Assembly: GCA_044345405.1 (NCBI GenBank)
Contig: JBIJBE010000057.1
Coordinates: 1-18,831, forward strand
Direction of reading: 5' to 3'
Origin: Bdellovibrionota bacterium
GTDB taxonomy: Bacteria; Bdellovibrionota_C; UBA2361; OMII01
DNA: 18,831 nt
Shown here: positions 184-15,676 of the stretch, piece by piece
How positions within the stretch are numbered: position 1 is the first letter of the stretch
How the letters are laid out: the number at the start of each line of letters is the position of its first letter
Notes under the pieces: generated by a model
Told to the model about the DNA's origin: nothing
What the model saw: only the letters and a program-made list of their open reading frames with translations
Databases searched by the model: none
Made by a program: the position numbers and the translations under genes

Positions 184-1143
184 CTAGAATCCTATAAGGC
201 CTCGTACCCCTCCGGAGCGACGGGCCGCTTTGGTAGCCGTATCGATAAGTGACTGGGGAATCGCTGGGACGGAGAGGTCTATCTTCATGGTCGCCGAGTG
301 TCGGACTAGGTCGCCGATCAGCTCAGACATAGAGGCGTACCGAAGAGCGGGATTCTTCTCAGCGCATATCTCAATAAAATCTTGGCACCACTTCGGGGCG
401 TCGGGTCGGAAGTCCCGTACCTGCGGAATCGCTTGAGTAATGTGCTTCGCGATAATCGTAGCGAGGGTATCTCCTGTGAAGGGTGGCTCTCCCGTCAACA
501 TTTCAAAGAAGACGATACCGAGGGAATATATATCCAGTAGAGGACTAACCGCGCCGCCTTTTAAGAGTTCAGGGGCCATGTAGAACGGGGTGCCCAGGAT
601 CGCTCCCTCAGGTGTTAGCTTGCGGTCGAGAACGATATCCTTGGCCGAGCTGAAGTCAGATAATTTGACGTGATCGTCGTGCCCTAGAAGGACGTTCTCA
701 GGTTTGATGTCGCGATGAGTAATCCCCACGCCGTGTGAATAGTCGAGAGCGAGAGCTAATTGGAAGAGGATGCGGATCGCCCGTTCTATCGGCAGGCTTG
801 AGCGATGGCGATCTATCACGGCTCTGAGGTCCTCTCCCTCCACGATTTCCATGGTGAAGTAGTGCCCGCCGTTCTTGAGCTCGCCGAAATCAAAAATTCT
901 CACGATATTGGGGTGGGAGAGTTTGCGAGCGACGATGATCTCTCGTTGAAATCTCGCCACGAAAGAGGCGTCGGTGAGTAGGCTTTTGTTTAGCAACTTA
1001 AGCGCTATTACCTCATTATCAAGGCTGGTGTCTTGGACCTTATACACGGTGCCCATGCTCCCTGCGCCGATCTGGCCGATCGGCGCGTACCGCCGAGTGG
1101 GGGTCTCCGAGAGGTCTTTAGGATCTGATGGCGGGGTGTTCAC
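184..1143 (-). CDS. Hanks-type serine/threonine protein kinase (PknB-like catalytic domain only, cytoplasmic)
   Basis: Gly loop GAGSMGTVY, IALK lysine, RFQRE alphaC glutamate, catalytic HRDIKPEN, DF(S), GTPFYMAPE, DIYSLG and subdomain XI Arg (NPALRY). There is no TM helix or sensor domain. GTG start. Confidence 0.95.
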   Translation of the reverse strand: MNTPPSDPKDLSETPTRRYAPIGQIGAGSMGTVYKVQDTSLDNEVIALKLLNKSLLTDASFVARFQREIIVARKLSHPNIVRIFDFGELKNGGHYFTMEIVEGEDLRAVIDRHRSSLPIERAIRILFQLALALDYSHGVGITHRDIKPENVLLGHDDHVKLSDFSSAKDIVLDRKLTPEGAILGTPFYMAPELLKGGAVSPLLDIYSLGIVFFEMLTGEPPFTGDTLATIIAKHITQAIPQVRDFRPDAPKWCQDFIEICAEKNPALRYASMSELIGDLVRHSATMKIDLSVPAIPQSLIDTATKAARRSGGVRGLIGF

Positions 1144-1911: not shown

Positions 1912-2658
1912 ATGCGGAAAGCAATTCGATTTTTGGCTTGTTTCTCAGTTGTGTGTTTCGCGGCTTGCTCCGATCCGCAATCGGCGCAGCTCGCGAATGA
2001 CATCGAGGTGATAAAGAAGCAGCAGGCGGAGGTTCTTCAGAAGTTGAACTCACTTGAGGTCGCGATGAAGGGGCGTCCGGCGCAGCCCGCGCCACCTCCC
2101 CCTCCGCAGGGCCCCTTTACGGTGCCTGCCAAGAACGCGACCGTTTTAGGAAACGCTAACGCTCCAACGGTCATCGTCGCGTGGTCCGATTTTCAATGCC
2201 CGTTTTGCTCAAAGATCCTCCCGGCTATTAACGCTACCCTGCAGGACCCTGAGATGAAGGGAAAGGTTGCCTTCGTTTTTAAGCAGTTCCCGCTCGGGTT
2301 TCACAAGCAGGCGATCCCAGCGGCTCGTGCCGCGCTCGCCGCTGGTCGTCAGGGTAAGTTCTTTGAGATGCACGACAAGATATTCGCGAATCAGGCTCAA
2401 TTGTCCGACGACAAGTATGTCGTGTGGGCAAAAGAGTTGGGGCTTAATGTGAGCAAGTTCGAGAAGGATGTCGCCGATCCCGCGATTGAGGCTCAGATCA
2501 AATCTGAGATGGAAGAGGGCACGAAGGTCGGTGTACGTGGAACGCCAAGTCTGTACATCGGCACGAAGAACGGGGATTCCTACATCCTCAATCGAGCCAA
2601 TGACCGAACGGTGGAGTACTTCAAGCAGTCGGTGAAGGATCTTCTGCAGAAGAAATAA
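1912..2658 (+). CDS. DsbA-family thioredoxin-fold thiol-disulfide oxidoreductase, predicted lipoprotein
   Basis: Signal peptide with lipobox FAA-C, a short coiled coil and a Pro-rich linker. Then SDFQ-CPFC active site, FKQFPL, QGKFFEMHD helical insert and cis-Pro loop GVRGTPS. Confidence 0.92.
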   Translation: MRKAIRFLACFSVVCFAACSDPQSAQLANDIEVIKKQQAEVLQKLNSLEVAMKGRPAQPAPPPPPQGPFTVPAKNATVLGNANAPTVIVAWSDFQCPFCSKILPAINATLQDPEMKGKVAFVFKQFPLGFHKQAIPAARAALAAGRQGKFFEMHDKIFANQAQLSDDKYVVWAKELGLNVSKFEKDVADPAIEAQIKSEMEEGTKVGVRGTPSLYIGTKNGDSYILNRANDRTVEYFKQSVKDLLQKK

Positions 2659-2850
2659 CCAGCCTCCTCCAGGTGCTGGCGCGCTAACTCACTCTCGATT
2701 GAATGCGGATGGGATACCTAGTTTCGGTAGGTTACCCCTTCTTGCCCCGGGTTCTTCTGGGGGATCGGTCCGAACTCTAAAGATTCCCTCCTTTGCACCG
2801 ACCTGCATCTTGTCCGAGTGATAAGGGACCCACGTTCCAGAGGGGGAAGG

Positions 2851-4533
2851 ATGAGTGAATCAACCAGCACAAAGCGAACAGTTCAGTCAGTAGTATCCGA
2901 CGCCGCGAAGATCCGAGAGCGGCAACAGGCCGTGGTTACGGAACGAACGAAGGCGTTCGCTCAGACGAACGTATTCGCCTCGATCATGCTCAATCAAGAA
3001 CTCTCTCCGGAAGGGAAGCGAGACGCGTTTGTGAAGGAGCTCGCGTTCTCAAAGGAGAGCACTAAGGAGCAGAATCGGGCCAAGCTTGAGGCCTTCGGCG
3101 CCTTCAAGGAGTATCTCCAAGAGCAGCGTAAGGTTCTTAATCGCGAGGGTATCAAACTTCAGGACACAGAGGCCTTTGCTGAGCTTCAGTCCGTTGTGGA
3201 TGATATGACCCGAGCCAGCGTTGAGTTTCAAGACAAAGCGAAGCCTCTTATCGATGTCCTCACCGCGGTCTTTGAGATTCGAAAGAACGACAAGATTCCG
3301 GACGTGTACAAAGAGATTCAGAAAGATAAAGAGTGGGCAGAGGAGCAGAAGAAACTCCTGGAAACGTTCGAACAACGACTCGCTGAGTCTGTTTCCCGCG
3401 GTGAGGCTCTTGAGCGAGAGAAGGCGAGGCTCTCGGCGGAGAAGTCCTTTTTCGGACTGGGTCCGATCAAGAAATCCGCGCTCGCTCGGATCGGAGAGAT
3501 CGACTCGATTGATAAAGTGAGAGCGTCGGATGAGATTAATGACGCCCTCAACAAGGTAGAGGCCCAACGGGCGACCATAGCCGCGGGCCGAGATCCCGAG
3601 AACCCAGAGCTATCCGATCAGAAGCGGGTGTTGCGGGAGTTCCTTGATCTAACTAAGGAGGAGAATAGGGACCGTCAAAAGGCTCTCATCGACGCCGCTG
3701 TGAACTACGTTGATACATCCGATACACGCCTCAAGGGCGTGCTTGGTACGCTTGAGCGATTGGGTAAGCACGCCGAGGTCCTCTCGGATACGAACGGCAT
3801 CCTTAAAAACATGCACCTCATCATGGACGAGTCGTTGAAAGCGGTTTCTCAGGGGAATGAGGAGGTGAAGAAGGGACTGGAATCGGCTCCCGGGGAGGAG
3901 TCCTCTATCGCTCGAATGACCCGTGAGGATAAGCTTCAAGACCTCAACGAGTTTATTAGTCGATCCGATGACCACGCGATAGACGTGGCGAACTCCATCG
4001 GCGGTCTTACGAAGCACGCCGTTCAGATCCAGGCTTACAAGGATACGATAAGGAACGAGAGCGGGAGTACCAAGCGACTCCACCTTGAGGGCGTCTCACA
4101 GATGGGAGAACAGCTCATGTCCGTGGTGAGCGCGATATCAGCGGCGGCTACAAGCGAGTCCCGCTCAATCGCGGCCAACAATTTCGCCCGCATGGCGGCG
4201 CAGAATCAAACGATCATCTCGCAAGAGGTCGTGCGTAACGCCACGACGATCGACCTTGAGGCGCAGCAGATCTCTCGCCTCGTTGGAGAGCTTCAGGATT
4301 ACGGCGATGTTCTCAAAGCTTCGAGCGATATCGCGAACGCTGGATACACTCGCATGCGTGATACGATCGGCGCGATTCGAAAGGTCTCTGGCGCGGTTCA
4401 GGGCGCTATCAACGACCTCGTGGATGAGCGAGCTGAGGCGAATATGGCGAGTGGTGAGGCGGATAATTCATCGGAAAAGCCGGGTGGGGGCCAAGGATTC
4501 GCCAATCCGTTTGATAAACTTGGAAATTCATAG
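2851..4533 (+). CDS. Large all-alpha coiled-coil protein of unknown function (560 aa); first gene of a putative 3-gene operon
   Basis: Long ORF with a purine-rich RBS (AGGGGGAAGG) directly before ATG 2851. It is E/K/A/S/L-rich, Cys-free and Pro-poor, with heptad-like helices and no signal peptide or clear TM helix. Confidence 0.85.
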   Translation: MSESTSTKRTVQSVVSDAAKIRERQQAVVTERTKAFAQTNVFASIMLNQELSPEGKRDAFVKELAFSKESTKEQNRAKLEAFGAFKEYLQEQRKVLNREGIKLQDTEAFAELQSVVDDMTRASVEFQDKAKPLIDVLTAVFEIRKNDKIPDVYKEIQKDKEWAEEQKKLLETFEQRLAESVSRGEALEREKARLSAEKSFFGLGPIKKSALARIGEIDSIDKVRASDEINDALNKVEAQRATIAAGRDPENPELSDQKRVLREFLDLTKEENRDRQKALIDAAVNYVDTSDTRLKGVLGTLERLGKHAEVLSDTNGILKNMHLIMDESLKAVSQGNEEVKKGLESAPGEESSIARMTREDKLQDLNEFISRSDDHAIDVANSIGGLTKHAVQIQAYKDTIRNESGSTKRLHLEGVSQMGEQLMSVVSAISAAATSESRSIAANNFARMAAQNQTIISQEVVRNATTIDLEAQQISRLVGELQDYGDVLKASSDIANAGYTRMRDTIGAIRKVSGAVQGAINDLVDERAEANMASGEADNSSEKPGGGQGFANPFDKLGNS

Positions 4534-4557
4534 TGCGTCGCTGCCGGGGAGGTATCT

Positions 4558-6732
4558 ATGGGAGATTCAGCGTCTGGGGAAACGTTGACTCGAGGCTCCG
4601 ACGTTCTCGCTCGGAGACCGAACTTTAAGCTCGTCGGGCGTGACACCGAGCTCGCCGAGTTGTCTACCGCGCTCATGAAGCTTCATCGTCGAAACCTTGT
4701 CGTAACGGGACGAGGAGGGGTTGGCGTGAGCGCCATCGTTCTCGGATTGCAGGCGAGTAAGCGCGATCTCACCACACCGGTTGATATCGTTGGAAAGCGA
4801 TTCTTCTGGCTGAACACCGATCTTCTCTTCGAGTCGGGGAACACCGCGGCGATAAATGAGGCGTTCAGAAAGGCGCGTAATACTTTGAGCGCCTCAAACT
4901 CAGCTGTGCTGGTTGTTGAGGACGCCGCGGACTTCATCAAGTTCGCCACAATGACGGGATGTAGCAATCTCATTAACGGTTTGATGGGAGACCTAAAAGC
5001 GGGGCGCTATCAAGCTATCTTTGAGACGAGCGATGAGGGACTGGCTGAGCTTCTTAAATGTGACGGGGACCTCTTGGAGAATTGCACCCTCTACGAGGTA
5101 AAGGAGCCTGCTCCACTGAATCTCCGATTAATCGCCGAGCAGGTGCGTGGAGAGCTTGAAGCTCACCATGGCGTTGGGATATCGCCCAAAGCTCTTGAGG
5201 GGGCGGTAGCATTGACTGAAAAATACAAATTGACCGAGTTGAGGGCGCAGCCGGACGCGGCGATAACGCTCCTCGATCTCGCCATGACGCACTTCTGTCG
5301 CCAGGCGCACCTCGCACCTGTTCACATCGAGGAGCTGAAACGAAAGCTCGCGTCGACCCCTCCCGCCGCCCCCGAACGTCGTGATATCGAAACTCGTATT
5401 CAGACGGCCCAAGCGGAGTGGAACGAGCGACAACGGCAGGTTCGAGCGCTCTACCAGGAGATGAGCGACGGAGAGGAGCAGATACGGGTACTTGAGGATG
5501 AGGTTCAGACCCTAAAAAACGCCCATCAGCGGCGTGTTTCGGAGCTGCAGAGCTCGGCGAGCGCGAGTAGTGTGATGAGTGGTCACGGTGATCCGATGGG
5601 GATCTACAAGGACTCCGACACCGCCGCCGTAACTGAGGTTCGGCAACGGCTCGATATGTTGCGTAAGCTGGTGTCGCGGGCGAGCGAGGCATACACAAAA
5701 AAGGTGGCCGAGGTCTACGCCGGGTTGTCGATTGGGGAGGAGGATGTACTGCGCTCGTTTAGCGCGCTATCCGGGATCCCCGTAGACACGTTGACGGAGA
5801 ACGAGCGAGAGCGATTGCGTAATCTGGAACACGTTTTAAGCGCGCGGGTAGTGGGACAGACGGAGCCGACCACTGAAGTTGCGCAGTCGGTTAAACGAGC
5901 TCGATTGGGCTTGAAGCTTCCGAATAAGCCCTCCGGGACCTTTATGTTCCTTGGACCTTCGGGAGTGGGAAAGACCGAACTCGCGAAGGCGCTCTCCGAA
6001 GCGCTCTCGGTTCCCCTGCTGCGGTTCGATATGTCGGAGTATATGGAGAAGCACGCGGTCGCGAAGCTCATAGGAGCGCCTCCAGGATATGAAGGGTATG
6101 AGCATGGTGGGATCCTCACCAATCTCGCGCGTCGTAACCCTTACAGTGTCGTGCTCTTTGACGAGATTGAGAAGGCTCACCCCGATGTCTTCAATCTGAT
6201 GCTTCAGCTCCTCGATGATGCCCGCCTTACCGACAGCCGAGGACTGACCGCGTCGTTTAAGGATACGATCGTGATTATGACTACGAACATCGGAACGCCT
6301 CACTTCCTCGATGAGACGATGCCGTTTGAGGAGGCCAAGAAACTCGCCCTCACGGACCTCCGTTCTCACTATCGTCCAGAGTTCCTGGGACGGTTCGGGG
6401 GAAATATCTACGCATTCCAACGGCTCGGTGTTGAGGTGCTTTCGGCGATCGCGATCAAGGAATTGGGTCGTATCAACGCGCTCATCGCCGATCAGAAGAT
6501 TCACCTCGTCATGCCCCAGGCAGCGATGCGGGAAATGGTGCAAGCCGTGTATGTTCCGCGGGAGGGGGCTCGAAGCATCTTGGGATACATGGACCGACAT
6601 ATTACATCGAGTATCGCGGACCTCGTATTGAATGAGCGTGTGAGAGAGGGGGAGATAGAGGTCTCCTTTGAGGGATCCACAAAAACTATCGTGTTGAAGC
6701 CCGTGGCTCCCGCTGTGGCTCAAGCGGTGTAG
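4558..6732 (+). CDS. ClpA/ClpB (Hsp100)-family AAA+ protein lacking the N-domain, with degenerate NBD1, long coiled-coil middle domain and intact NBD2
   Basis: LVGRDTE start of NBD1, LEAHHGVGI and QPDAAITLLDLA (cf. LPDKAIDLIDEA). NBD2 has RVVGQ, FMFLGPSGVGKTELAKAL, RFDMSEYMEKHAVAKLIGAPPGYEG, VVLFDEIEKAHPDVFN, IMTTN, RPEFLGR and GAR. RBS GGAGGT at 4548-4553. Confidence 0.92.
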   Translation: MGDSASGETLTRGSDVLARRPNFKLVGRDTELAELSTALMKLHRRNLVVTGRGGVGVSAIVLGLQASKRDLTTPVDIVGKRFFWLNTDLLFESGNTAAINEAFRKARNTLSASNSAVLVVEDAADFIKFATMTGCSNLINGLMGDLKAGRYQAIFETSDEGLAELLKCDGDLLENCTLYEVKEPAPLNLRLIAEQVRGELEAHHGVGISPKALEGAVALTEKYKLTELRAQPDAAITLLDLAMTHFCRQAHLAPVHIEELKRKLASTPPAAPERRDIETRIQTAQAEWNERQRQVRALYQEMSDGEEQIRVLEDEVQTLKNAHQRRVSELQSSASASSVMSGHGDPMGIYKDSDTAAVTEVRQRLDMLRKLVSRASEAYTKKVAEVYAGLSIGEEDVLRSFSALSGIPVDTLTENERERLRNLEHVLSARVVGQTEPTTEVAQSVKRARLGLKLPNKPSGTFMFLGPSGVGKTELAKALSEALSVPLLRFDMSEYMEKHAVAKLIGAPPGYEGYEHGGILTNLARRNPYSVVLFDEIEKAHPDVFNLMLQLLDDARLTDSRGLTASFKDTIVIMTTNIGTPHFLDETMPFEEAKKLALTDLRSHYRPEFLGRFGGNIYAFQRLGVEVLSAIAIKELGRINALIADQKIHLVMPQAAMREMVQAVYVPREGARSILGYMDRHITSSIADLVLNERVREGEIEVSFEGSTKTIVLKPVAPAVAQAV

Positions 6733-6747
6733 CAACCAGGAGAGATA

Positions 6748-7578
6748 ATGAGCGATCCGGCCGGAAGGGGAGATGGAGGAAAGGACGAGCTCGACTCGCT
6801 TATCGCCCGCGCCCGGCGTATGTCGAAATCGACATCTCCATCGGTGACGCCATCCGATGACCAGGGTACGATCGCCGAATCGATTCGAGAATTGAACGAG
6901 AATGTAACCTTCCTTCGAAGAGCGGTTACCGCGACTCGGACGGTTGTGGGGGGCTTGCTTTCCACCGTTGTTTCTCCCGTGTGGCGAGTGCTTCGCCCCC
7001 CGCTCTCCTGGTTGTGGAGGATCTACCTCTCGGTGTGGAATCGATTCGCCTACACCGTCGATCGAACGACGAAGGAGCGAAGGTTGTCGCGCGTTCGGTC
7101 TAGTATCGTCGTTGTGTTTACCGTGCTTGTTCTCTCTACCTTCACCGATACATGGTTGGGAAGCACGGTCCGCTTCTTTACCGTTGAGCCGATCGTTGAT
7201 GGGATGCTGATAGGCCTATCGAAACGCACAGAGGTGTTCTACCTAACGCAATCCGATGAGATAGATCCCGAGAACAATATTCACTCAGTTCGCGGTTGTC
7301 GTAAGAGGGGAGAGTGCGCTGAGGTCGACGCCGCGTACTTCCGGGTGCAGCCCCGACTCTCGCACGATATCTGGAAGCTATGGATGTACGGTAATCCTGT
7401 GTATGTCCCTGACCACATCGTGGCACCGATCGCTCCGGGTCTTAACGAGTGTCACGTTACCTACTATGGGTACCGAATGACCTCCTCGTGGATCGCTCGG
7501 GTGCTTCGGTCCTTGCAGTTTTATCCGACGATGCTTGAGGCGAAGTGTACGTATCTAGGGAGCGATAATCGCAGCTGA
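6748..7578 (+). CDS. Membrane-anchored hypothetical protein (276 aa) with a C-terminal 4-Cys extracytoplasmic-type domain
   Basis: AGGAG RBS, 15 nt after the ATPase stop. N-terminal polar/helical part, Trp/Arg-rich amphipathic stretch, hydrophobic helix SIVVVFTVLVLSTF, then a beta-rich domain holding all four Cys. Confidence 0.85.
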   Translation: MSDPAGRGDGGKDELDSLIARARRMSKSTSPSVTPSDDQGTIAESIRELNENVTFLRRAVTATRTVVGGLLSTVVSPVWRVLRPPLSWLWRIYLSVWNRFAYTVDRTTKERRLSRVRSSIVVVFTVLVLSTFTDTWLGSTVRFFTVEPIVDGMLIGLSKRTEVFYLTQSDEIDPENNIHSVRGCRKRGECAEVDAAYFRVQPRLSHDIWKLWMYGNPVYVPDHIVAPIAPGLNECHVTYYGYRMTSSWIARVLRSLQFYPTMLEAKCTYLGSDNRS

Positions 7579-7746
7579 CCCCTACGTACGACCCTCTAGC
7601 GTATATCCTGTGGAGAAGACTCGATTTTGGGACCACGAGCGGTATGCCACATGGTATCCCGTGCGCGCGGGATATAGTGCCCCTGGGGGCTTTTACATAG
7701 GGCAGCTCTGTGAGACAACGGGAGGAACGTACAAGGAGTACCCCCT

Positions 7747-8493
7747 ATGCTAGAGCTTTTTTCTCCGGAGAACTTGATCGCCCTATTGACCCTAACGTCA
7801 TTAGAGATCGTTCTTGGAATAGATAATATCGTTTTTATCGCGATTATCGCCGGTCGTTTAAAGGCTGAACAGCGCCACTCAGCTCGTCTGATCGGACTTG
7901 GGCTCGCGGTTATCACGCGGTTGATGCTCCTCTTCACCCTTTCCTACATGGCATCGCTTACCAGTCCGGTTGTGACGATGCCGTTTATGGGTCGGGAGCT
8001 GAGTGGTCGTGATATTATCCTCCTCGTCGGAGGTCTCTTCCTTATTTACAAAGCGACGAAAGAGATTCGAGAGAAGACGGTTCACGAGGAGAGTGAGCTT
8101 CGTGAATTTCAAGGCGGTAAGATGCCGACGATGCGGGGTGTGATAACCCAAATCATTCTCATCGATATCGTGTTCTCGCTCGATTCCGTGATCACGGCGG
8201 TGGGAATGACAAACAACCTTCCGGTGATGGCGACCGCTGTTGTTTTGGCTGTTATCGTCATGTTGCTCTTCTCAGGATTTATCGTTCGTTTCATCGAGGC
8301 GAATCCTACGATTAAGATACTCGCGCTCTCGTTCCTCCTCATGATCGGTCTCGTGCTTGTCGCCGATGGACTCGGTCACCACATCGAGAAGGGATACATC
8401 TACTTCGCGATGGCGTTCTCGCTTGGGGTGGAGATGCTTAATTTAAGGGCGGCCCGGGTGCGAGGGGTGTCGGGGGAGGGCGGTCATTCCTGA
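7747..8493 (+). CDS. TerC-family integral membrane protein (short type, no CBS domains); probable Mn2+/metal-related transporter
   Basis: Signature motifs LEIVLGIDNIVFI, GGLFLIYKAT, DIVFSLDSVITAVG and KGYIYFAMAFS. About 7 hydrophobic helices. AAGGAG RBS at 7733-7738. Confidence 0.95.
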   Translation: MLELFSPENLIALLTLTSLEIVLGIDNIVFIAIIAGRLKAEQRHSARLIGLGLAVITRLMLLFTLSYMASLTSPVVTMPFMGRELSGRDIILLVGGLFLIYKATKEIREKTVHEESELREFQGGKMPTMRGVITQIILIDIVFSLDSVITAVGMTNNLPVMATAVVLAVIVMLLFSGFIVRFIEANPTIKILALSFLLMIGLVLVADGLGHHIEKGYIYFAMAFSLGVEMLNLRAARVRGVSGEGGHS

Positions 8494-8648
8494 CCGCCGC
8501 GTTAATGGCGTTCAACGGTGACGTGGACGTATGGCGTTACACGTCACCGTCGACGTGAAACGAGACAGGCAACGTTCCGGCGAGCAGGAATGCTCGCCCT
8601 CCCAAGGTGCGACCCGTGACTAGGGAGGGCGACCATTCCTGGTCGCCG
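8474..8648. repeat. Cluster of three 26-bp REP-like palindromic repeats in alternating orientation (BIME/REPIN-like)
   Basis: Copy A (+, 8474-8499) GGGAGGGCGGTCATTCCTGACCGCCG; copy B (-, 8578-8603) GGGAGGGCGAGCATTCCTGCTCGCCG; copy C (+, 8623-8648) GGGAGGGCGACCATTCCTGGTCGCCG. Each is GGAG followed by a perfect 8-bp stem with a TTCC loop. Confidence 0.8.
8515..8550. other. Strong hairpin between convergent terC-family and glk genes (REP spacer; possible terminator or mRNA stabiliser)
   Basis: Perfect 11-bp inverted repeat ACGGTGACGTG (8515-8525) / CACGTCACCGT (8540-8550). There is no U-tract, so a terminator role is uncertain. Confidence 0.55.
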
Positions 8649-8710
8649 TGTTGCGGACGGCGAAGGTTATCAGGAATGCGAAGCGTTTTGGCGCTCAGGA
8701 CATCCCTTCC

Positions 8711-9700
8711 CTACAACGTCGAAGCGATAGCCGCCGCCCCATAGAGCGAGGCGTAATCATCCTTGATGATGAACACAGGGGTCGCTTCAACACGCTCCTT
8801 CTGCTTACCTTTGTTGAGGTATCCTTCAAGGAACGAGCCGTTCGTGAGGAACTCCAAGATCTTTGGTGGGATACCACCGCCTAAGAAGACACCTCCGGTC
8901 GCGAGGTAGGTGAGAACGATATTGCTACAGTGGGCGCCGAGCATGGTGCAGAACATATTGAGCGTTTTGACGCAGAGGTCTGATTTACCCGCCATCGCGA
9001 TGCCTGTGATAGTTGAAGCTGGATGCTCCTTAGCCTCGGGGGTCTTCATCTCCTCGGGCTCTTCGCCGTATCCGGAGTCTCGAAGGAAGGTGTAGATGTT
9101 GAAGATACCTGGTCCGCACAGTATCGACTCAACGCTGACGTGAGAAAGTTTCTTTTGAAGATACTTTAAGAGCTCGATCTCAAGGTCGTTGGTTGGCGCG
9201 AAGTTAGCGTGTCCACCCTCTGAGGCGAGGAGCACGCTCCACCCACCTTCTCGATGAATGAGCGAGTGTCCCAGTCCAGTTCCTGGCGCGACAACAACGC
9301 AGGAGCCCGCGCGATCATACCCCTCACCGCCGTAGAGCGTTTTGAGGCTGCTTGGACCGAAGTGCGGAATCGCCGCCGCGGTACTGACGAGATCGTTTAC
9401 GAGTTTGACTTTGGAGATATCAAGGGCGAGTCCAACCTGAACCATCGCGACCTCCCATGGGAGGTTCGTCACCTTGACCTTGCCGTTCACAACGGGACCG
9501 GGGAGTCCGAAGCAACCTGCCTCAAGATGCCCTTTGACCTTTGAACTGTGTTTGTCCATGAAGACGCCAAGGATCGCCTCAAGGCTCTTGTAATCCTTGC
9601 TCGCGTAGTCCTCAGATACCACCAGCTCGACCTTTCCAGCACGTCTCTCAAAGAGGCCGATTCGAGCCTTCGTTCCACCCACATCACCAGCGATAAGCAT
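8711..9700 (-). CDS. glk: Glucokinase (E. coli Glk-type, non-ROK)
   Basis: AGDVGGTKAR phosphate-1 motif, GPV…VTNLPW, LVND, APGTGLG, SEGGHANFAP, VSVE and GGVFLGGGIPPKI. CAGGAG RBS favours ATG at 9700 (alternative 9706) over the TTG at 9760. Confidence 0.95.
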   Translation of the reverse strand: MLIAGDVGGTKARIGLFERRAGKVELVVSEDYASKDYKSLEAILGVFMDKHSSKVKGHLEAGCFGLPGPVVNGKVKVTNLPWEVAMVQVGLALDISKVKLVNDLVSTAAAIPHFGPSSLKTLYGGEGYDRAGSCVVVAPGTGLGHSLIHREGGWSVLLASEGGHANFAPTNDLEIELLKYLQKKLSHVSVESILCGPGIFNIYTFLRDSGYGEEPEEMKTPEAKEHPASTITGIAMAGKSDLCVKTLNMFCTMLGAHCSNIVLTYLATGGVFLGGGIPPKILEFLTNGSFLEGYLNKGKQKERVEATPVFIIKDDYASLYGAAAIASTL

Positions 9701-9999
9701 GAACATCTCCTGAACAGTTAATGCATCGGCATTTCTAGCAAACAGAGCGACGTCGGCCAACTATTTCCGCCGGAAGACGTCGTTTTGTCCTATTCGGTCT
9801 ACGGACGAGATTGTCTGACGGCGAACATTGAGAAGAGGATTAGACCGGGTATGAAGGGGGCCGCGGTATGAGAGGCGCTAAAAGAGAGGACGCCCGATGC
9901 CGATAGGTTCCAGAAATATCCCGTCTTAACATGGACTTCCCGAAGTACGCTCCCTATAATCCGAACACCAGGGGCCCTGCGCCGTATATTCGTTCGCCT

Positions 10000-11391
10000 A
10001 TGAAGATCTTGATGCTCGGATGGGAATATCCCCCTCATATCGCGGGGGGACTCGGCACTGCCTGTCAGGGCCTAACGAGCGCGTTGTCCTCCCAAGGGGT
10101 CGATATTCACTTCGTCGTTCCCCAGCTCTTCGGAATGGAAGAGGCACGGCACATGGTGCTTTCTGATTCCTCTCGCGCGATTTCGCCAGGTGGCCAACAA
10201 CCGCAAGGTCCTAAGCCACCGCCCGTTCCCGTTCCCACGACCCGTATCCCGGCTTTTCTCTCCCCGTACTGGAGTCCCCGTCAGTTTACGGAGACGATGG
10301 CCGCAATCACGCACCAACAGGTTGCATCGCTCTCGCCCGCGTTGAGAAAGGATCCGACGGCGCGTGCGCTGATAGATGGAGAGGTATATGGGATCGATCT
10401 CGTCAGCGCGCTCGAACACGCGCAGCCAGACCTTCCCGAGCGGGTCGCGGGTAACGATCGCTACAGCAAAGACCTCTTCGAGGAGGTTGAGCGCTTCACG
10501 ATGCAAGTTATCTCACAGTTCGCGGGGGAGTCGTTCGATGTGATTCACGCCCACGATTGGATGACGTTTCCCGCTGGGGTCGCTCTCTCCGAGCGAACGG
10601 GCAAACCTCTTATCGTACACGTGCATAGCCTTGAGCAGGATAGAAGTGGCCTCTTCGTGCATCCTCAGATCAGTGAGATGGAGCGTTTCGGGACCCGACA
10701 CGCCGATAAGGTGATAGCGGTGAGTTACTTCACGAAACGCTCTATTGAACGTCATCACGGAATCCCCTCAAGTAAGGTACTCGTTGTTCACAACGGCGTG
10801 TATCCGCGAGAGATGGTAACTGATTATCGAGGAAAGAAGACGTGGCCTGAGCACGTGGTCGCTTTTGTCGGTCGAGTGACCTTCCAAAAGGGGCCTGAGT
10901 ACTTCGTTGAGATGGCGGCGAAAGTTATCCCCCATCTGCCGGATGTTCTTTTCGTGGTCGCTGGCCAAGGAGATATGCTGCCATTGATAATGGAGCAGGT
11001 TAAAGAGCTTGGTCTTTCAAAGAATTTCATGTTCCCGGGATTCGTGCAGGGTGAGGAGCTTGAGGAGATCTTCTCTGTCGCGGATATCTATGTCATGCCA
11101 TCCGTGTCTGAGCCGTTCGGTATCACGGCGCTTGAGGCTGTGAGCTTCGATACCCCGATTATTATCTCCAAGCAGTCCGGTGTGGCCGAGGTTATCGAGC
11201 ATGCCCTCAAGGTTGATTTTTGGGACGTGGACCGCATGGCGGATCTCATTATCAACGCGCTCGTGCATCCTGAGATGCGCCAGGATTTGGCTCGAATGGC
11301 TCGAGAGGAGATCAAAGTGCTTCATTGGGACGCGGCGGCTTTAAAGACGATAGAGGTCTACCAAGACGTGAGTCCACAAGCCTCGCTATAA
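10000..11391 (+). CDS. GT4-family (GT-B fold) glycosyltransferase, glycogen-synthase-like
   Basis: MKILMLGWEYPPHIAGGLG N-terminus, IHAHDWMT, VHVHSLE, VVHNGV, FVGRVTFQKG and PSVSEPFGITALEA (E-x7-E). Start placed at ATG 10000 by family N-terminus; the ORF extends back to 9931. Confidence 0.93.
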   Translation: MKILMLGWEYPPHIAGGLGTACQGLTSALSSQGVDIHFVVPQLFGMEEARHMVLSDSSRAISPGGQQPQGPKPPPVPVPTTRIPAFLSPYWSPRQFTETMAAITHQQVASLSPALRKDPTARALIDGEVYGIDLVSALEHAQPDLPERVAGNDRYSKDLFEEVERFTMQVISQFAGESFDVIHAHDWMTFPAGVALSERTGKPLIVHVHSLEQDRSGLFVHPQISEMERFGTRHADKVIAVSYFTKRSIERHHGIPSSKVLVVHNGVYPREMVTDYRGKKTWPEHVVAFVGRVTFQKGPEYFVEMAAKVIPHLPDVLFVVAGQGDMLPLIMEQVKELGLSKNFMFPGFVQGEELEEIFSVADIYVMPSVSEPFGITALEAVSFDTPIIISKQSGVAEVIEHALKVDFWDVDRMADLIINALVHPEMRQDLARMAREEIKVLHWDAAALKTIEVYQDVSPQASL

Positions 11392-11408
11392 GGGCAGGAA
11401 CGAGAAGT

Positions 11409-12635
11409 ATGCCGGCGGTTTGTTTCTATTTTCAGGTGCACCAACCGTATCGACTGCGGCGTTATTCCTATTTTGATGTCGAGAACGCGACCACCTACTT
11501 CGATGACACACTGAATCGCTCTATTATGGAGCGAGTCGCGAAGCGCTCTTATCTGGCGGCGAACGAGCGCCTGCTTCGCGCGATTCGCGCATGCGATGGT
11601 TCGCTCAAAGTCGCGTTCTCGATAAGCGGCACCGCGCTTGAGCAGATGCGTCTCTACGCCCCAGACGCGCTGGAGAGCTTTCGAGCGTTGGCGGCCACTG
11701 GATGTGTCGAGTTTTTGGGGGAGACCTACTATCACTCCCTCGCGTCCCTCTACGATCGTGATGAGTTCGAGGCGCAGGTGCGTTTGCACTCCGATGCCAT
11801 CGAACGGGAGTTCGGTCAGCGGCCCCGCGTATTTCGTAATACGGAGCTTATCTACAGCGATGAGATCGGGCGAGTGGTTGGAGAGCTCGGATTTCGGGGA
11901 GTTCTGGTAGAGGGAGTGAACGATATCTTGGGATGGCGTTCGCCACATTTCGCCTACCGCGTGCCCGGGGCGACAACCAAGTTGCTTCCGCGAAGTTTTA
12001 AACTCTCGGATGATATCGCGTTCCGGTTCACCCATGGCGGTGACGAACGCCTCACTCCGGAACGATACGCCGCCTCGTTGCATGACCTCACCGGTAACGC
12101 TGATTTCGTTGGGTTGTTCCTCGATTATGAGACCTTCGGTGAGCATCATGAGGGAGATACCGGGATTCTCGATTTTCTTGAGAAACTTCCGCCTCACGTT
12201 CTCAAGCACAAGGAATGGTCCTTCACTACGCCCTCTGACGCGATTCGGTATCTTCACCCTGTCTCCGAATTGTCCTTCGCCCGCGTTACATCGTGGGCTG
12301 ATACCGAGCGAGATGTGAGCGCGTGGTGTGGCAACAAGATGCAGCGGGGAGCGATTGAGACGCTCTACGAGACCAAGACCCTCTATGCGGGATGTGATAT
12401 CGCGGCGCCCGATATGGCGCTCGCTCGAGAGACGTGGCGTCGTTTGCAGACCTCCGACCACTTTTACTACATGAGCACCAAGGGAGATGGAGATGGTGTG
12501 GTGCATCGATACTTCAGCCCGTATGAGAGTCCGTACGACGCTTTCGTCGCGTACATGAACGTGCTCAAGGATATCAACGCCCGTTCGAGAAAGGTCGCTC
12601 GTGACCGGGACCGTGAAGCGGCTTCGAACGCATAG
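11409..12635 (+). CDS. Glycoside hydrolase family 57 (alpha-amylase-like)
   Basis: YFQVHQPYRL, GETYYHSL, FRNTEL (nucleophile Glu), LSDDIAFRF, DYETFGEH (acid/base Asp), SWAD and LQTSDHFYYM. Starts 17 nt after the GT4 stop. Confidence 0.95.
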   Translation: MPAVCFYFQVHQPYRLRRYSYFDVENATTYFDDTLNRSIMERVAKRSYLAANERLLRAIRACDGSLKVAFSISGTALEQMRLYAPDALESFRALAATGCVEFLGETYYHSLASLYDRDEFEAQVRLHSDAIEREFGQRPRVFRNTELIYSDEIGRVVGELGFRGVLVEGVNDILGWRSPHFAYRVPGATTKLLPRSFKLSDDIAFRFTHGGDERLTPERYAASLHDLTGNADFVGLFLDYETFGEHHEGDTGILDFLEKLPPHVLKHKEWSFTTPSDAIRYLHPVSELSFARVTSWADTERDVSAWCGNKMQRGAIETLYETKTLYAGCDIAAPDMALARETWRRLQTSDHFYYMSTKGDGDGVVHRYFSPYESPYDAFVAYMNVLKDINARSRKVARDRDREAASNA

Positions 12636-12672
12636 GACGCGCCTCGCCCGCCTCTACCGACAGGTCGAGTCT

Positions 12673-15429: not shown

Positions 15430-15676
15430 GAAATTATTACATTTGTTAGATGAGATGAGACCCGAGAACAATGCGTAAGACCGTCGTATCTTGAAAGATT
15501 TCTGAGGGGGTGTGAAAAGCTCAGGAGTCGAGATGTGTGGTCTGGGGACGAGTAAGAGGTCGATTGTGCGTTTAGGTAGTTGATATTACAGAACTTATCT
15601 CGGCTGAAATAATAGGCGACACTGTTCGAATTTCATACCATATCTCATCAAGAGTTTTAAAAAGGCTGGATAAGCT

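Follow-up and report, generated by a model that had tools for sequence, protein, structure and literature searches.

A ClpB-derived Hsp100 encoded with a helical protein and a membrane protein in bacteria and giant phages

Hsp100 unfoldases are general disaggregases or, rarely, motors of a single structure, as in the case of ClpV and the sheath of the type VI secretion system (T6SS). Here, we ask whether a ClpB-like ATPase encoded between two genes of unnamed families in a Bdellovibrionota bacterium (assembly GCA_044345405.1, contig JBIJBE010000057.1) functions together with its two neighbors and, if so, in which process. The window, i.e., the whole stretch of DNA analyzed, comprises 18,831 nucleotides, and all positions refer to it. 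An earlier note on this DNA had proposed that the three genes, here referred to as g1, g2, and g3, form an undescribed system. Homologues of the three genes co-occur in other genomes, no match to a characterized system was found, and none of the papers in the literature searched describes the three-gene module. Altogether, we estimate the probability that the genes genuinely function together as a module, with an Hsp100 dedicated to it, at roughly 0.9.

Arrangement, conservation, and distribution of the three genes

As described in the earlier note, the three genes are co-oriented, with small gaps and a ribosome-binding site (RBS) before each. All of them lie on the forward strand. g1 (2851..4533) extends from the ATG at 2851 to the TAG at 4533, encodes 560 amino acids, and has the RBS GAGGGGGAAGG at 2840-2850; an alternative GTG start at 2818 is possible and lacks an RBS. 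g2 (4558..6732; ATG at 4558 to TAG at 6732; 724 amino acids) follows after 24 nt with the RBS GGGGAGG at 4546-4552, and g3 (6748..7578; ATG at 6748; 276 amino acids) after 15 nt with the RBS AGGAGAG at 6738-6744. The intergenic regions that bound the genes are 192 nt upstream (2659..2850, forward strand, which carries the g1 RBS) and 168 nt downstream (7579-7746), matching the approximately 190 and 170 nt given previously. No promoter or RNA element was recognized in 2659..2850, neither a sigma-70-like site nor a credible terminator was found in 2400-8000, and sigma-54, sigma-32, and sigma-E patterns upstream of g1 across loci were at or below the level in shuffled sequences. Rfam gave no match in the window at the gathering score and none in either flanking gap at E ≤ 1; no tRNA was found in the window; and searches beside the module for insertion scars, in the form of direct or inverted repeats, returned short chance matches only. 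The sequencing runs containing the stretch are exclusively lake-water DNA metagenomes, with no RNA run among them. The window also lacks T6SS, clpP, clpS, mcsAB, and dnaK genes, in agreement with the earlier reading of this context.

The order g1-g2-g3 on one strand is conserved in 73 of the 74 loci with enough DNA, and the remaining locus has g1 alone, in the single genome that carries g1 without g2 and g3; seven further loci are cut by contig ends. This arrangement is far beyond chance. In 15 of the 73 loci, the end of g2 and the start of g3 share 4 nt, which suggests translational coupling. No conserved fourth gene was found in 80 loci, the next real gene cluster comprising 12 loci. Among 41 related genomes, g1 is present in four and g3 in five; their presence and absence agree in 40, and the sole discordant genome contains a broken g3 fragment. 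g3 is single-copy in all five genomes searched. For 57 loci, the distance matrices of the three proteins are correlated pairwise (Spearman 0.72, 0.42, and 0.53), and nearest neighbors agree between the matrices in 45/57, 41/57, and 36/57 cases. The proposal that the three genes make up one conserved module is borne out by the synteny and the concordant presence of g1 and g3.

The module occurs in at least 107 bacterial species, with loci in Bdellovibrionota, Alphaproteobacteria, and Gammaproteobacteria. The patchy distribution for which the earlier note had suggested looking is evident: two of 24 congeners and six of 51 Halopseudomonas species carry the module. In three congeners, it resides in three different chromosomal contexts, and a gene tree of bacterial and phage copies mixes phyla. 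The best explanation is that the module is a self-contained three-gene operon that is exchanged horizontally. Among 72,556 plasmid records, no relative of g1 was found.

An Hsp100 with one catalytic ring and two partners of unnamed families

Judging from its sequence, g2 is a ClpB-derived Hsp100, i.e., an unfoldase of the hexamer type. Its best NCBIfam match is ClpB (TIGR03346), with 396.5 bits versus a cut-off of 1232.1; with 318.6 bits, it also misses the cut-off of 884.95 for ClpV/TssH (TIGR03345). We aligned 19 module ATPases with the three Clp paralogues from the source genome. In the D1 domain of g2, the degenerate Walker A motif GRGGVGVS (4708..4731, forward strand; residues 51-58) has V57 at the position of the lysine, the Walker B motif reads VVED, and the pore loop reads SGN-TAAIN; in 19/19 module ATPases, the Walker A lysine, the Walker B glutamate, the KYRG pore loop, and the ERRF arginines are all lost. 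The lysine position is occupied by C, V, or I in every aligned family member, and the phage copy likewise lacks the lysine. In D2 (AAA_2 match, E 5.2e-55), the Walker A motif GPSGVGKT (5953..5976, forward strand; residues 466-473) and the pore loop GAPPGYEGY (6073..6099, forward strand; residues 506-514) are intact, the Walker B residues D535-E536 (6160..6165, forward strand) are invariant, as are K472, Y511, N577, R612, and R672, and all 19 ATPases retain Walker A and B, GYEGY, TTN, RPEFLNRF, and GAR. Thus, the earlier assignment of E536 as the Walker B glutamate agrees with the alignment. An AAA_lid_9 match at residues 192-267 with a coiled coil after it, at approximately residues 258-387 (5329..5718, forward strand), indicates that the M-domain is present in the D1 small subdomain; it is longer than that of the genome's own ClpB and contains a low-complexity insert. 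About 150 N-terminal residues of that ClpB, corresponding to the N-domain, are missing in g2, which begins 24 nt past the g1 stop codon. At the place of the ClpP-docking [ILV]G[FL] loop, neither g2 nor its family has an insert, as in ClpB; two paralogues of the source genome have LGF (ClpA-like) and GFGF (third paralogue) at this position.

In comparison with ClpB/Hsp104, g2 has in common the D1 large and lid subdomains, the M-domain in D1, D2 and D2-small, a canonical D2, and the lack of a ClpP loop; however, it has no N-domain, has lost the D1 Walker A lysine, Walker B glutamate, pore-loop tyrosine, and arginine fingers, has a longer M-domain, belongs to a separate clade, and is always encoded with the two partner genes. 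This clade, which contains all module ATPases, has a long stem and an SH-aLRT support of 99 in a first tree (disregarding row L109, an antisense ORF) and a support of 100 in a second tree that includes the phage copies. A separate canonical ClpB is kept in the source genome and in 5/5 carrier genomes examined. These features uphold the description of g2 as a dedicated, atypical ClpB relative. We infer that the D1 ring is a pseudo-ATPase scaffold and the D2 ring the only motor, and that g2, because it lacks both the N-domain and the ClpP-docking loop, would remodel proteins rather than deliver them for degradation. This family has turned the first Hsp100 ring into a conserved non-catalytic scaffold.

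g1 is an acidic, cysteine-free, all-helical protein; its family of 385 representative clusters is unnamed, and no relative was found in Pfam (E 0.1), NCBIfam, PADLOC, or the PDB, nor a DNA-binding or enzymatic domain in Pfam and NCBIfam. The AF2 model consists of helices only (pLDDT 78), and g1 has no transmembrane segment (maximum 19-residue hydropathy 0.94). As modeled, g1 has an elongated helical shape and is soluble in the cytoplasm. Two motifs are kept from Bdellovibrionota to phages: (i) FFGLG (3448..3462, forward strand; residues 200-204), which is common to the bacterial and phage copies and in the model forms the tip of a hairpin between helices 149-195 and 208-245; and (ii) the C-terminal NPFDKLG (4504..4524, forward strand), which follows a low-confidence linker (residues 515-549; pLDDT <50) in an unstructured tail and whose PF is at most a few residues from the end of almost every copy. 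Fold comparisons of g1 gave no specific relative. Foldseek against the PDB found nothing at E ≤ 1e-3; a wide VIA-align search returned generic helical bundles with a top Z of 12.3, within the range of this tool for unrelated helical models; and a BFVD search returned only long coiled-coil proteins with rmsd values of 28-111 Å. The weak fold matches include the alpha-pore-forming toxins AhlC (Z 10.5) and Cry6Aa (Z 9.4), and the hairpin matches CHMP4B (Z 9.6), Snf7 (Z 9.3), and PspA (Z 8.8), with unrelated hairpins scoring as well. Profile searches of PDB sequences with g1 and g3 gave no meaningful match.

Two candidate relatives of g1 were rejected. Kinship to PspA/IM30 or ESCRT-III (PF04012, PF03357) is not supported at the sequence level, with no Pfam match at E 0.1, and the hhalign probability for PspA is 0.8%; matches to PF04012 in the source genome lie on another contig only. 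No sequence kinship of g1 to known polymer formers was found. A lead to TelA (PF05816; ESM Atlas 0.78) has an hhalign probability of 0.2%, and PF05816 matches nothing in the source genome. Of 80 other loci, only one (L057) has a TerC gene close to the module, and the link to ter islands that the earlier note had raised is therefore coincidental.

g3 is a bitopic membrane protein, also of an unnamed family. Its N-terminal part contains a helix with the family motif LLxRAxxL (residues 10-28; 6775..6831, forward strand) and is followed by a transmembrane segment (about residues 119-138; 7102..7161, forward strand) with the positive stretch KERRLSRVRSS just before it. Hydropathy scans of 12 family members gave a single peak in nine and two separate peaks in three. 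The C-terminal domain (residues 151-274; 7198..7569, forward strand) is predicted to be an OB-fold-like beta-barrel with cysteines at 184, 190, 235, and 267, which are kept in most lineages and absent from one (L084-type). From the positive-inside rule and the four cysteines, this domain is probably periplasmic; it is probably also disulfide-bonded. In VIA-align searches, all of the top 50 chains were OB folds, including SSB, RPA, PriB, AB5 toxin B subunits, and the anticodon domain of AspRS, at Z scores of only 6.3-7.8. The Foldseek comparison that the earlier note had called for left g1 without a PDB match at E ≤ 1e-3, and for the g3 domain it gave probabilities of up to 0.97 with E > 1e-3. 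According to these models, the helical N-terminal part of g3 lies in the cytoplasm, a single span crosses the membrane, and the OB-fold-like domain with its conserved cysteines is on the far side.

DUF1523 proteins (PF07509) share with g3 an N-terminal transmembrane segment followed by a domain with V-x-x-YG-x-R ... [FY]P; however, they lack the long cytoplasmic N-terminal part of g3 and have an extra C-terminal transmembrane segment. The hhalign probability is 27.9% (E 6.4e-4) over 28 columns, and the ESM Atlas cluster value is 0.78; DUF1523 gave no Pfam match to g3 at E 0.1 and no match on g3 at the genome level.

Copies in giant phages and comparison with known systems

Beyond bacteria, the complete module occurs in a clade of giant phages, which is new here: the Agrobacterium jumbo phage Atu_ph07 carries it, as do 10 of the 12 IMG/VR viral contigs with matches. 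In Atu_ph07 (NC_042013), gp493, gp492, and gp488 are homologues of g1, g2, and g3 in the same order; different from the bacterial loci, three small genes are inserted between the g2 and g3 homologues. gp493 is 27% identical to g1 (E 2e-50), gp492 is 37% identical to g2 with an equally dead D1 Walker A motif, and gp488 matches g3 with an hhalign probability of 100% (E 1.9e-48). gp493 and gp488 are annotated as hypothetical and gp492 as "ATP-dependent protease." In the accessible text of the Atu_ph07 paper (PMC6102473), gp492 is named ClpB, is counted among seven Clp-like proteins, and is suggested to remove aggregates, and gp493 and gp488 have 0 occurrences.

ClpV/TssH, which acts on the T6SS sheath, and Vps4, which acts on ESCRT-III, are functional analogues: as here, a single helical protein is encoded together with an AAA+ unfoldase that presumably serves it exclusively, and g1 resembles such partners in that it combines a hairpin of helices with a flexible C-terminus bearing a short conserved motif. 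However, the module differs from them in that the ClpV cut-off is missed, T6SS genes are absent, g2 has no MIT or N-domain, and g1 is not detectably ESCRT-III or PspA; moreover, the bitopic OB-fold membrane protein is an additional, third part. PspA operons have been described to encode a two-AAA+ protein whose N-terminal copy is inactive, and ATP-dependent membrane remodeling has been proposed by these authors (mSystems 2024, PMC11237479). These operons are similar to the module in that a helical membrane-associated protein adjoins a two-AAA+ ATPase with an inactive first domain; they differ in their true PspA/Snf7 homologues, to which g1 does not belong, and the main text has 0 occurrences of ClpB and Hsp100, but their ATPases may nevertheless belong to the g2 family. 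Identity with the PADLOC systems DolB and PDC-M37B was rejected, since the ATPase match is partial and the partner models are not matched by g1 or g3.

Possible functions of the module

The module stands out for a dedicated Hsp100 that is always encoded with two partners of unnamed families, one of which spans the inner membrane; its task is probably membrane-proximal and so far has no name. Most likely, from sequence features, it is a membrane-tethered remodeling machine in which g2 would act on g1 or g3. Through g3, the machine would be located at the inner membrane and linked to something periplasmic. Both g1 and the N-terminal helix of g3 would dock on the D1 ring, which is conserved yet catalytically dead, and on the long M-domain. 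By analogy to ClpV and the sheath and to Vps4 and ESCRT-III, we speculate that g2 grips g1 by its free C-terminal PF tail or its FFGxGG hairpin tip and pulls it with ATP, thereby disassembling or recycling g1 assemblies at the membrane. We put forward this particular division of labor, with g3 as membrane anchor and g2 disassembling or recycling g1, tentatively and at somewhat less than even odds. The physiological role could be the upkeep or remodeling of the cell envelope or membrane, which would serve some diderm bacteria as well as giant phages during the infection cycle. The answer would give AAA+ biology a new client-motor pair and jumbo-phage biology a new auxiliary function.

In Plasmodium, the PTEX translocon is composed of HSP101, PTEX150, and EXP2. 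By a similar logic, the module could be a membrane translocon or extractor, with g2 docking via g3, g1 as adaptor or pore-former, and polypeptides being threaded through the inner membrane or extracted from it, as by PTEX or Bcs1/Msp1-type AAA proteins. The three-part set of unfoldase, helical protein, and membrane protein fits this scenario, as do the translational coupling of g2 and g3, the weak fold similarity of g1 to, among others, AhlC and Cry6Aa, and the translocase roles proposed in a jumbo-phage review for phage AAA+ chaperones such as BCS1, ClpA, and ClpX. However, the toxin folds match no better than other helical bundles, no conserved cargo gene is nearby, and no channel is evident because g3 has one transmembrane segment and g1 none; we consider a translocon unlikely.

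A conflict system, for which we see about the same small chance, would provide anti-phage defense in bacteria and superinfection exclusion or counter-defense in phages, with g3 sensing an envelope event and g2 and g1 executing a membrane or proteome response. The patchy distribution equally suits such a system, and the three contexts in three congeners, the mixing of phyla in the gene tree, the ClpB-like D2 domains of some PADLOC candidates, and the NAD+ salvage genes amid which the module lies in three phage contigs (L161, L163, and L164) are in line with it. By contrast, the flanks consist of housekeeping genes rather than defense islands: none of 105 immediate neighbors scanned is an integrase, transposase, or defense protein, and PADLOC gave six matches among 149 flank ORFs from 18 loci, all via generic domains. 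The proximity to defense islands that the earlier note had considered was not found in these sets. When the three proteins themselves are compared with PADLOC, no model matches g1 or g3, and g2 matches the candidates PDC-M37B (2.2e-31) and DolB (1.2e-20), which have ClpB-like D2 domains, over residues 411-586 only, i.e., the AAA core. Effector domains such as nucleases, NADases, or pore toxins were not found in the module. Together with the presence of the module itself in jumbo phages, these observations weaken the anti-phage role suggested previously.

A bolder reading, to which we assign a low likelihood, is an ATP-powered transmembrane coupling device, in which the single-ring Hsp100 would pull on, or thread through, the bitopic OB-fold protein and the helical partner, such that force or a polypeptide crosses the inner membrane. 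If so, bacteria and phages would possess in this module a counterpart of PTEX or an ATP-driven analogue of the TonB/TolA force transducers, and giant phages would have captured it to manipulate the host envelope.

RseA-type anti-sigma factors are degraded by ClpXP. Following this logic, a periplasmic cue could cause g2 to grip the cytoplasmic N-terminus of g3 and to unfold or extract g3, thereby releasing or activating g1. The architecture of g3, with a free cytoplasmic N-terminus containing a conserved helix, one transmembrane segment, and an outside domain, and the coupling of g2 to g3 are compatible with regulated unfolding; this reading is nevertheless improbable, as g1 has no DNA-binding or enzymatic domain, g2 has no protease partner and no ClpP loop, and every round of signaling would use up the machine.

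That g2 is a second general disaggregase with unrelated neighbors, as its best NCBIfam match and the name and role given to gp492 (PMC6102473, in its accessible text) might suggest, is already disfavored and highly improbable, given a score far under the cut-off, the loss of the N-domain, D1 catalysis, and the D1 pore loop, the strict synteny and co-occurrence, and the canonical ClpB retained by carriers. Cultured carriers that are harmless are found in Halopseudomonas, Motilimonas, Pokkaliibacter, and Taklimakanibacter; with these and the isolated phage Atu_ph07, the function of the module is directly testable.

Three genes inherited and lost together

g1, g2 and g3 are passed on and lost as a set that serves cells and phages alike. 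In the window, g1 (2851-4533; 560 aa) encodes a helical protein, g2 (4558-6732; 724 aa) a ClpB-like Hsp100 ATPase, and g3 (6748-7578; 276 aa) a membrane protein. All three genes are on the plus strand and have purine-rich RBSs (2840-2850, 4546-4552 and 6738-6744, respectively), with gaps of 24 nt between g1 and g2 and 15 nt between g2 and g3, and flanking gaps of 192 nt and 168 nt. This layout matches exactly the three co-oriented ORFs that the earlier note described in 2851..7578, and, as it had stated, the window contains no T6SS, clpP, clpS, mcsAB or dnaK genes. Rfam and tRNA scans of the window gave no matches, and we found no description of the module in the literature searched.

A one-genome-per-species scan yielded 107 g1 relatives, from which we retained 80 loci. 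Based on direct tblastn, g2 adjoins g1 in 78 of the 80 loci and g3 is present in 47; using transitive clustering of all ORFs, we found g3 in 72/80 loci and the window. Contig ends cut seven of the eight loci that lack g3; the eighth, L088 in genome G140, is a true absence, with a solitary g1 homologue (6935-8731), a convergent 2OG-Fe(II) oxygenase gene after it, no g2 found near g1, and no g3 found anywhere in the genome. The conservation of the gene neighbourhood, which the earlier note had proposed to examine, is borne out in that all copies have the order g1-g2-g3 on a single strand; a 4-nt overlap joins g2 and g3 in 15/73 loci. There is no conserved fourth gene, the larger ORF clusters being antisense shadows and the next real cluster covering 12 loci. 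In 10 loci (ORF cluster 8; L029, L062 and relatives), we notice a co-oriented ORF of ~275 aa without a family, situated upstream of g1 at a distance of about 0.5-1.5 kb, which may reflect lineage synteny or an extra partner.

Among the 41 genomes nearest the window, g1 is present in the window's own genome (G000), G014, G019 and G036, and g3 in the same four genomes and as a broken fragment in G003, where the fragment, with an internal stop, is all that is left (C131:8169-8567). The G036 copy (L017) is decaying, with g1 reduced to about 150 residues, g2 split and g3 intact. The distance matrices of g1, g2 and g3 correlate across 57 loci; because genome relatedness was uncontrolled in this comparison, we read the correlation only as suggesting that the genes were inherited together.

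An accessory module among ordinary neighbouring genes

The carriers are diderm bacteria, comprising Bdellovibrionota (including Micavibrio-like MAGs), many Alphaproteobacteria (Dongia, Taklimakanibacter, Maritalea, Parvibaculaceae and Paracoccaceae) and Gammaproteobacteria (Halopseudomonas, Motilimonas, Pokkaliibacter, Woeseiaceae, Wenzhouxiangellaceae, one Vibrio and Alcanivorax). The module is accessory, and its distribution is patchy, with carriers in 2/24 other species of the window's genus and 6/51 Halopseudomonas species. The three congeners with the module have it at three different chromosomal sites. In the nearest congeners with an orthologous dsbA (G020, 81%; G015, 73%), an SPFH/Band-7 gene (257-1135 of L126 in G020; 215-1036 of L128 in G015) lies downstream of dsbA at the site corresponding to window 2659-7746, i.e., the site of the module in G000. 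In G020, dsbA and terC flank this gene; no terC was found in the G015 locus. The congener SPFH protein as query had no match in G000 (99.4% complete). L028, L038 and L042 have a different Band_7 gene upstream of the module, in divergent orientation. We found no flanking repeats marking an insertion of the module.

Of 137 candidate immediate neighbours, 105 were scanned, a hand-picked subset being excluded for brevity. These 105 have ordinary functions in metabolism, transport and regulation, and none is an integrase, transposase or defence gene; PADLOC gave six matches among 149 of the 179 flank ORFs (18 loci), all via generic domains. It is doubtful that the module is a conflict system; the proximity to defence islands that had been proposed for examination was not observed, and the proximity to ter genes does not recur, TerC occurring near the module in only one of the 80 other loci.

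In the window, the module is preceded by a Ser/Thr protein kinase gene (184-1143, minus strand) and a gene for a DsbA-like thioredoxin (1912-2658). An STK-like gene is also directly upstream of the module in L041 (6458-7519), which is probably a coincidence. The N-terminus of the DsbA-like protein is of lipoprotein type (…FAACS), and its linker (PAQPAPPPPPQGP) is rich in proline; a second, more distant DsbA-like paralogue (about 40-45% identity) is present in congeners. Downstream are a gene for a TerC-family protein (7747-8493) and an alpha-glucan/glycogen-type cluster (8711-15471), which encodes glucokinase (minus), a GT4/GT5 glycosyltransferase, GH57 and, on the minus strand, a GH63/MGH1-like hydrolase of 932 aa. 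Genes for a response regulator and a TonB-dependent receptor are also on this side.

A ClpB-like motor and its two partners

In g2, Pfam identifies AAA_lid_9 (192-267), a coiled coil (258-387), AAA_2 (457-613, E 5.2e-55) and ClpB_D2-small. The top-ranking NCBIfam model is ClpB, with 396.5 bits against a cut-off of 1232, and the scores for ClpA, ClpV, ClpG and ClpK are likewise well under their cut-offs. We aligned 19 family members with three Clp paralogues from the window's own genome. All 19 lack the N-domain. In their first ATPase ring (D1), the Walker A Lys is substituted (GxGGVG[C/V/I][S/T]), Walker B is [IV][ED]D versus hhhhDE, and the KYRG pore loop and ERRF arginines are missing. The second ring (D2) retains Walker A/B, the GYEGY pore loop, sensor 1, the Arg finger and sensor 2 in all of them. 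The ClpP-docking loop is absent, whereas the ClpA-like paralogue of the same genome has LGF at this position. Based on this alignment, g2 is a motor with a single active ring and lacks a protease partner. D1 is well conserved despite the lost catalytic residues, with many nearly invariant positions, which points to a role in binding rather than catalysis. The M-domain, a coiled coil inserted in D1, is longer than that of ClpB.

G000 separately encodes an 881-aa ClpB of the canonical type as well as two further Clp ATPases. In each of five other carrier genomes, a single module ATPase (519-608 bits) is accompanied by a distinct ClpB (297-323 bits). A quick IQ-TREE phylogeny with 35 rows, among them a wrongly picked ORF (L109), places 18 module ATPases in a single clade (SH-aLRT 99, stem length 1.88), separate from the ClpB/ClpV-like and ClpA-like groups. 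In the available part of the PSP paper (mSystems 2024, PMC11237479), PspA is described beside a protein whose first of two AAA+ domains is inactive, and ClpB is not mentioned.

The partners of g2 are a soluble helical protein (g1) and a bitopic membrane protein (g3). g1 has no family in Pfam, NCBIfam, PADLOC or PHROG, and its profile found no relative in the PDB. A word-indexed search returned 55 clusters, all unnamed or "hypothetical" except one with the automatic JGI label "predicted nucleic acid-binding Zn-ribbon protein". An HMM scan of 1.84 billion representatives gave 385 relatives, 218 at E <= 1e-30; among the best 150, full-length ones measure about 500-615 aa, the shorter rows match only in part, and fused forms of greater length are absent. 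g1 is acidic and has neither cysteine nor a hydrophobic segment. The AF2 model (82 sequences, mean pLDDT 78) contains only helices, with a hairpin (149-195/208-245), very long helices beyond residue 270, a drop in confidence past residue 430 and an unstructured tail (515-549). Motifs common to Bdellovibrionota through phages are NxF...PExK, FKEYLQ, LTDTxxFxEL and GVAGVADRLSxVLQAVSxAAL; the hairpin tip [FW][FW]G[LFMW]G and a PF motif among the last few residues are kept over the same range. Fold searches matched generic helical bundles and coiled coils, and kinship to TelA (0.2%) or PspA/ESCRT-III (0.8%) failed in profile-profile comparison.

g3 has no family in any library, and a profile search gave 237 clusters, all hypothetical, with lengths of 224-332 aa among the best 120. 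Based on AF2 (71 sequences, pLDDT 88), an N-terminal helix (residues 10-28), with the family motif LLxRAxxL in the alignment, is followed by a long amphipathic helix (41-101) rich in aromatic and basic residues and by a stretch of positive charge. A single transmembrane segment (about 119-138) comes next, and then a beta-barrel (151-274). Of 12 members scanned, nine have a single hydrophobic peak and three have two separate peaks. Four Cys C-terminal to the transmembrane segment are kept in most lineages and absent from the L084-type lineage. In a Foldseek-independent fold search, 50/50 best chains were OB folds with modest Z (6.3-7.8). Because of the positive-inside rule and the cysteines, we infer that g3 is N-in, C-out and that its OB-like domain is periplasmic and disulfide-bonded; a distant kinship to DUF1523 is possible.

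We suggest that the inactive D1 ring and the M-domain would be the docking surfaces, that g3 would anchor the machine and couple it to the periplasm, and that g1 would be the client, held through its free tail or hairpin tip. As working analogies, ClpV with the sheath and Vps4 with ESCRT-III come closest. We regard a PTEX-like translocon as unlikely, and RseA-like signalling as more improbable still.

Module copies in jumbo phages

The phage copies of the module are a new finding. By tblastn against 50,697 phage records, g1 was found only in Agrobacterium phage Atu_ph07 (490 kb), in the order gp493 (g1-like), gp492 (g2-like), three small genes and gp488. gp492 has 37% identity to g2 and shares its inactive D1 Walker A, and gp488 is clearly homologous to g3 (hhalign 100%, E 1.9e-48). 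In the available part of the Atu_ph07 paper (PMC6102473), gp492 appears as "ClpB", and gp493 and gp488 are not mentioned; the available part of a jumbo-phage review contains the term "ClpB" zero times.

g1 relatives are also present in 12 IMG/VR contigs of 20 to 519 kb, of which 10 have all three genes in order, one ends after g2 and one is a fragment. Among 126 flank ORFs scanned (146 candidates), 50 have PHROGs matches, including endolysin, RNA ligases, methyltransferases, homing endonucleases and NAD+ salvage genes; therefore, these contigs are phages. In a FastTree quick tree of 81 module ATPases rooted on six ClpB sequences, all 12 phage rows fall within one supported clade of 24 with copies from Dongiaceae, Hyphomicrobiales and Plastoroseomonas, and the deep branches are bacterial, which suggests that phages captured the module from Alphaproteobacteria. 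The Plastoroseomonas hellenica ATPase (L053) is nested in phage sequences, adjoining L159, and a return transfer from phage to bacterium is possible in this case. The NAD+ salvage genes lie beside the module in three phage contigs (L161, L163 and L164): a nicotinamide phosphoribosyltransferase gene is upstream of it in L163 and L164, and genes for a PnuC-like transporter and an NMN adenylyltransferase flank or follow it in L161 and L164.
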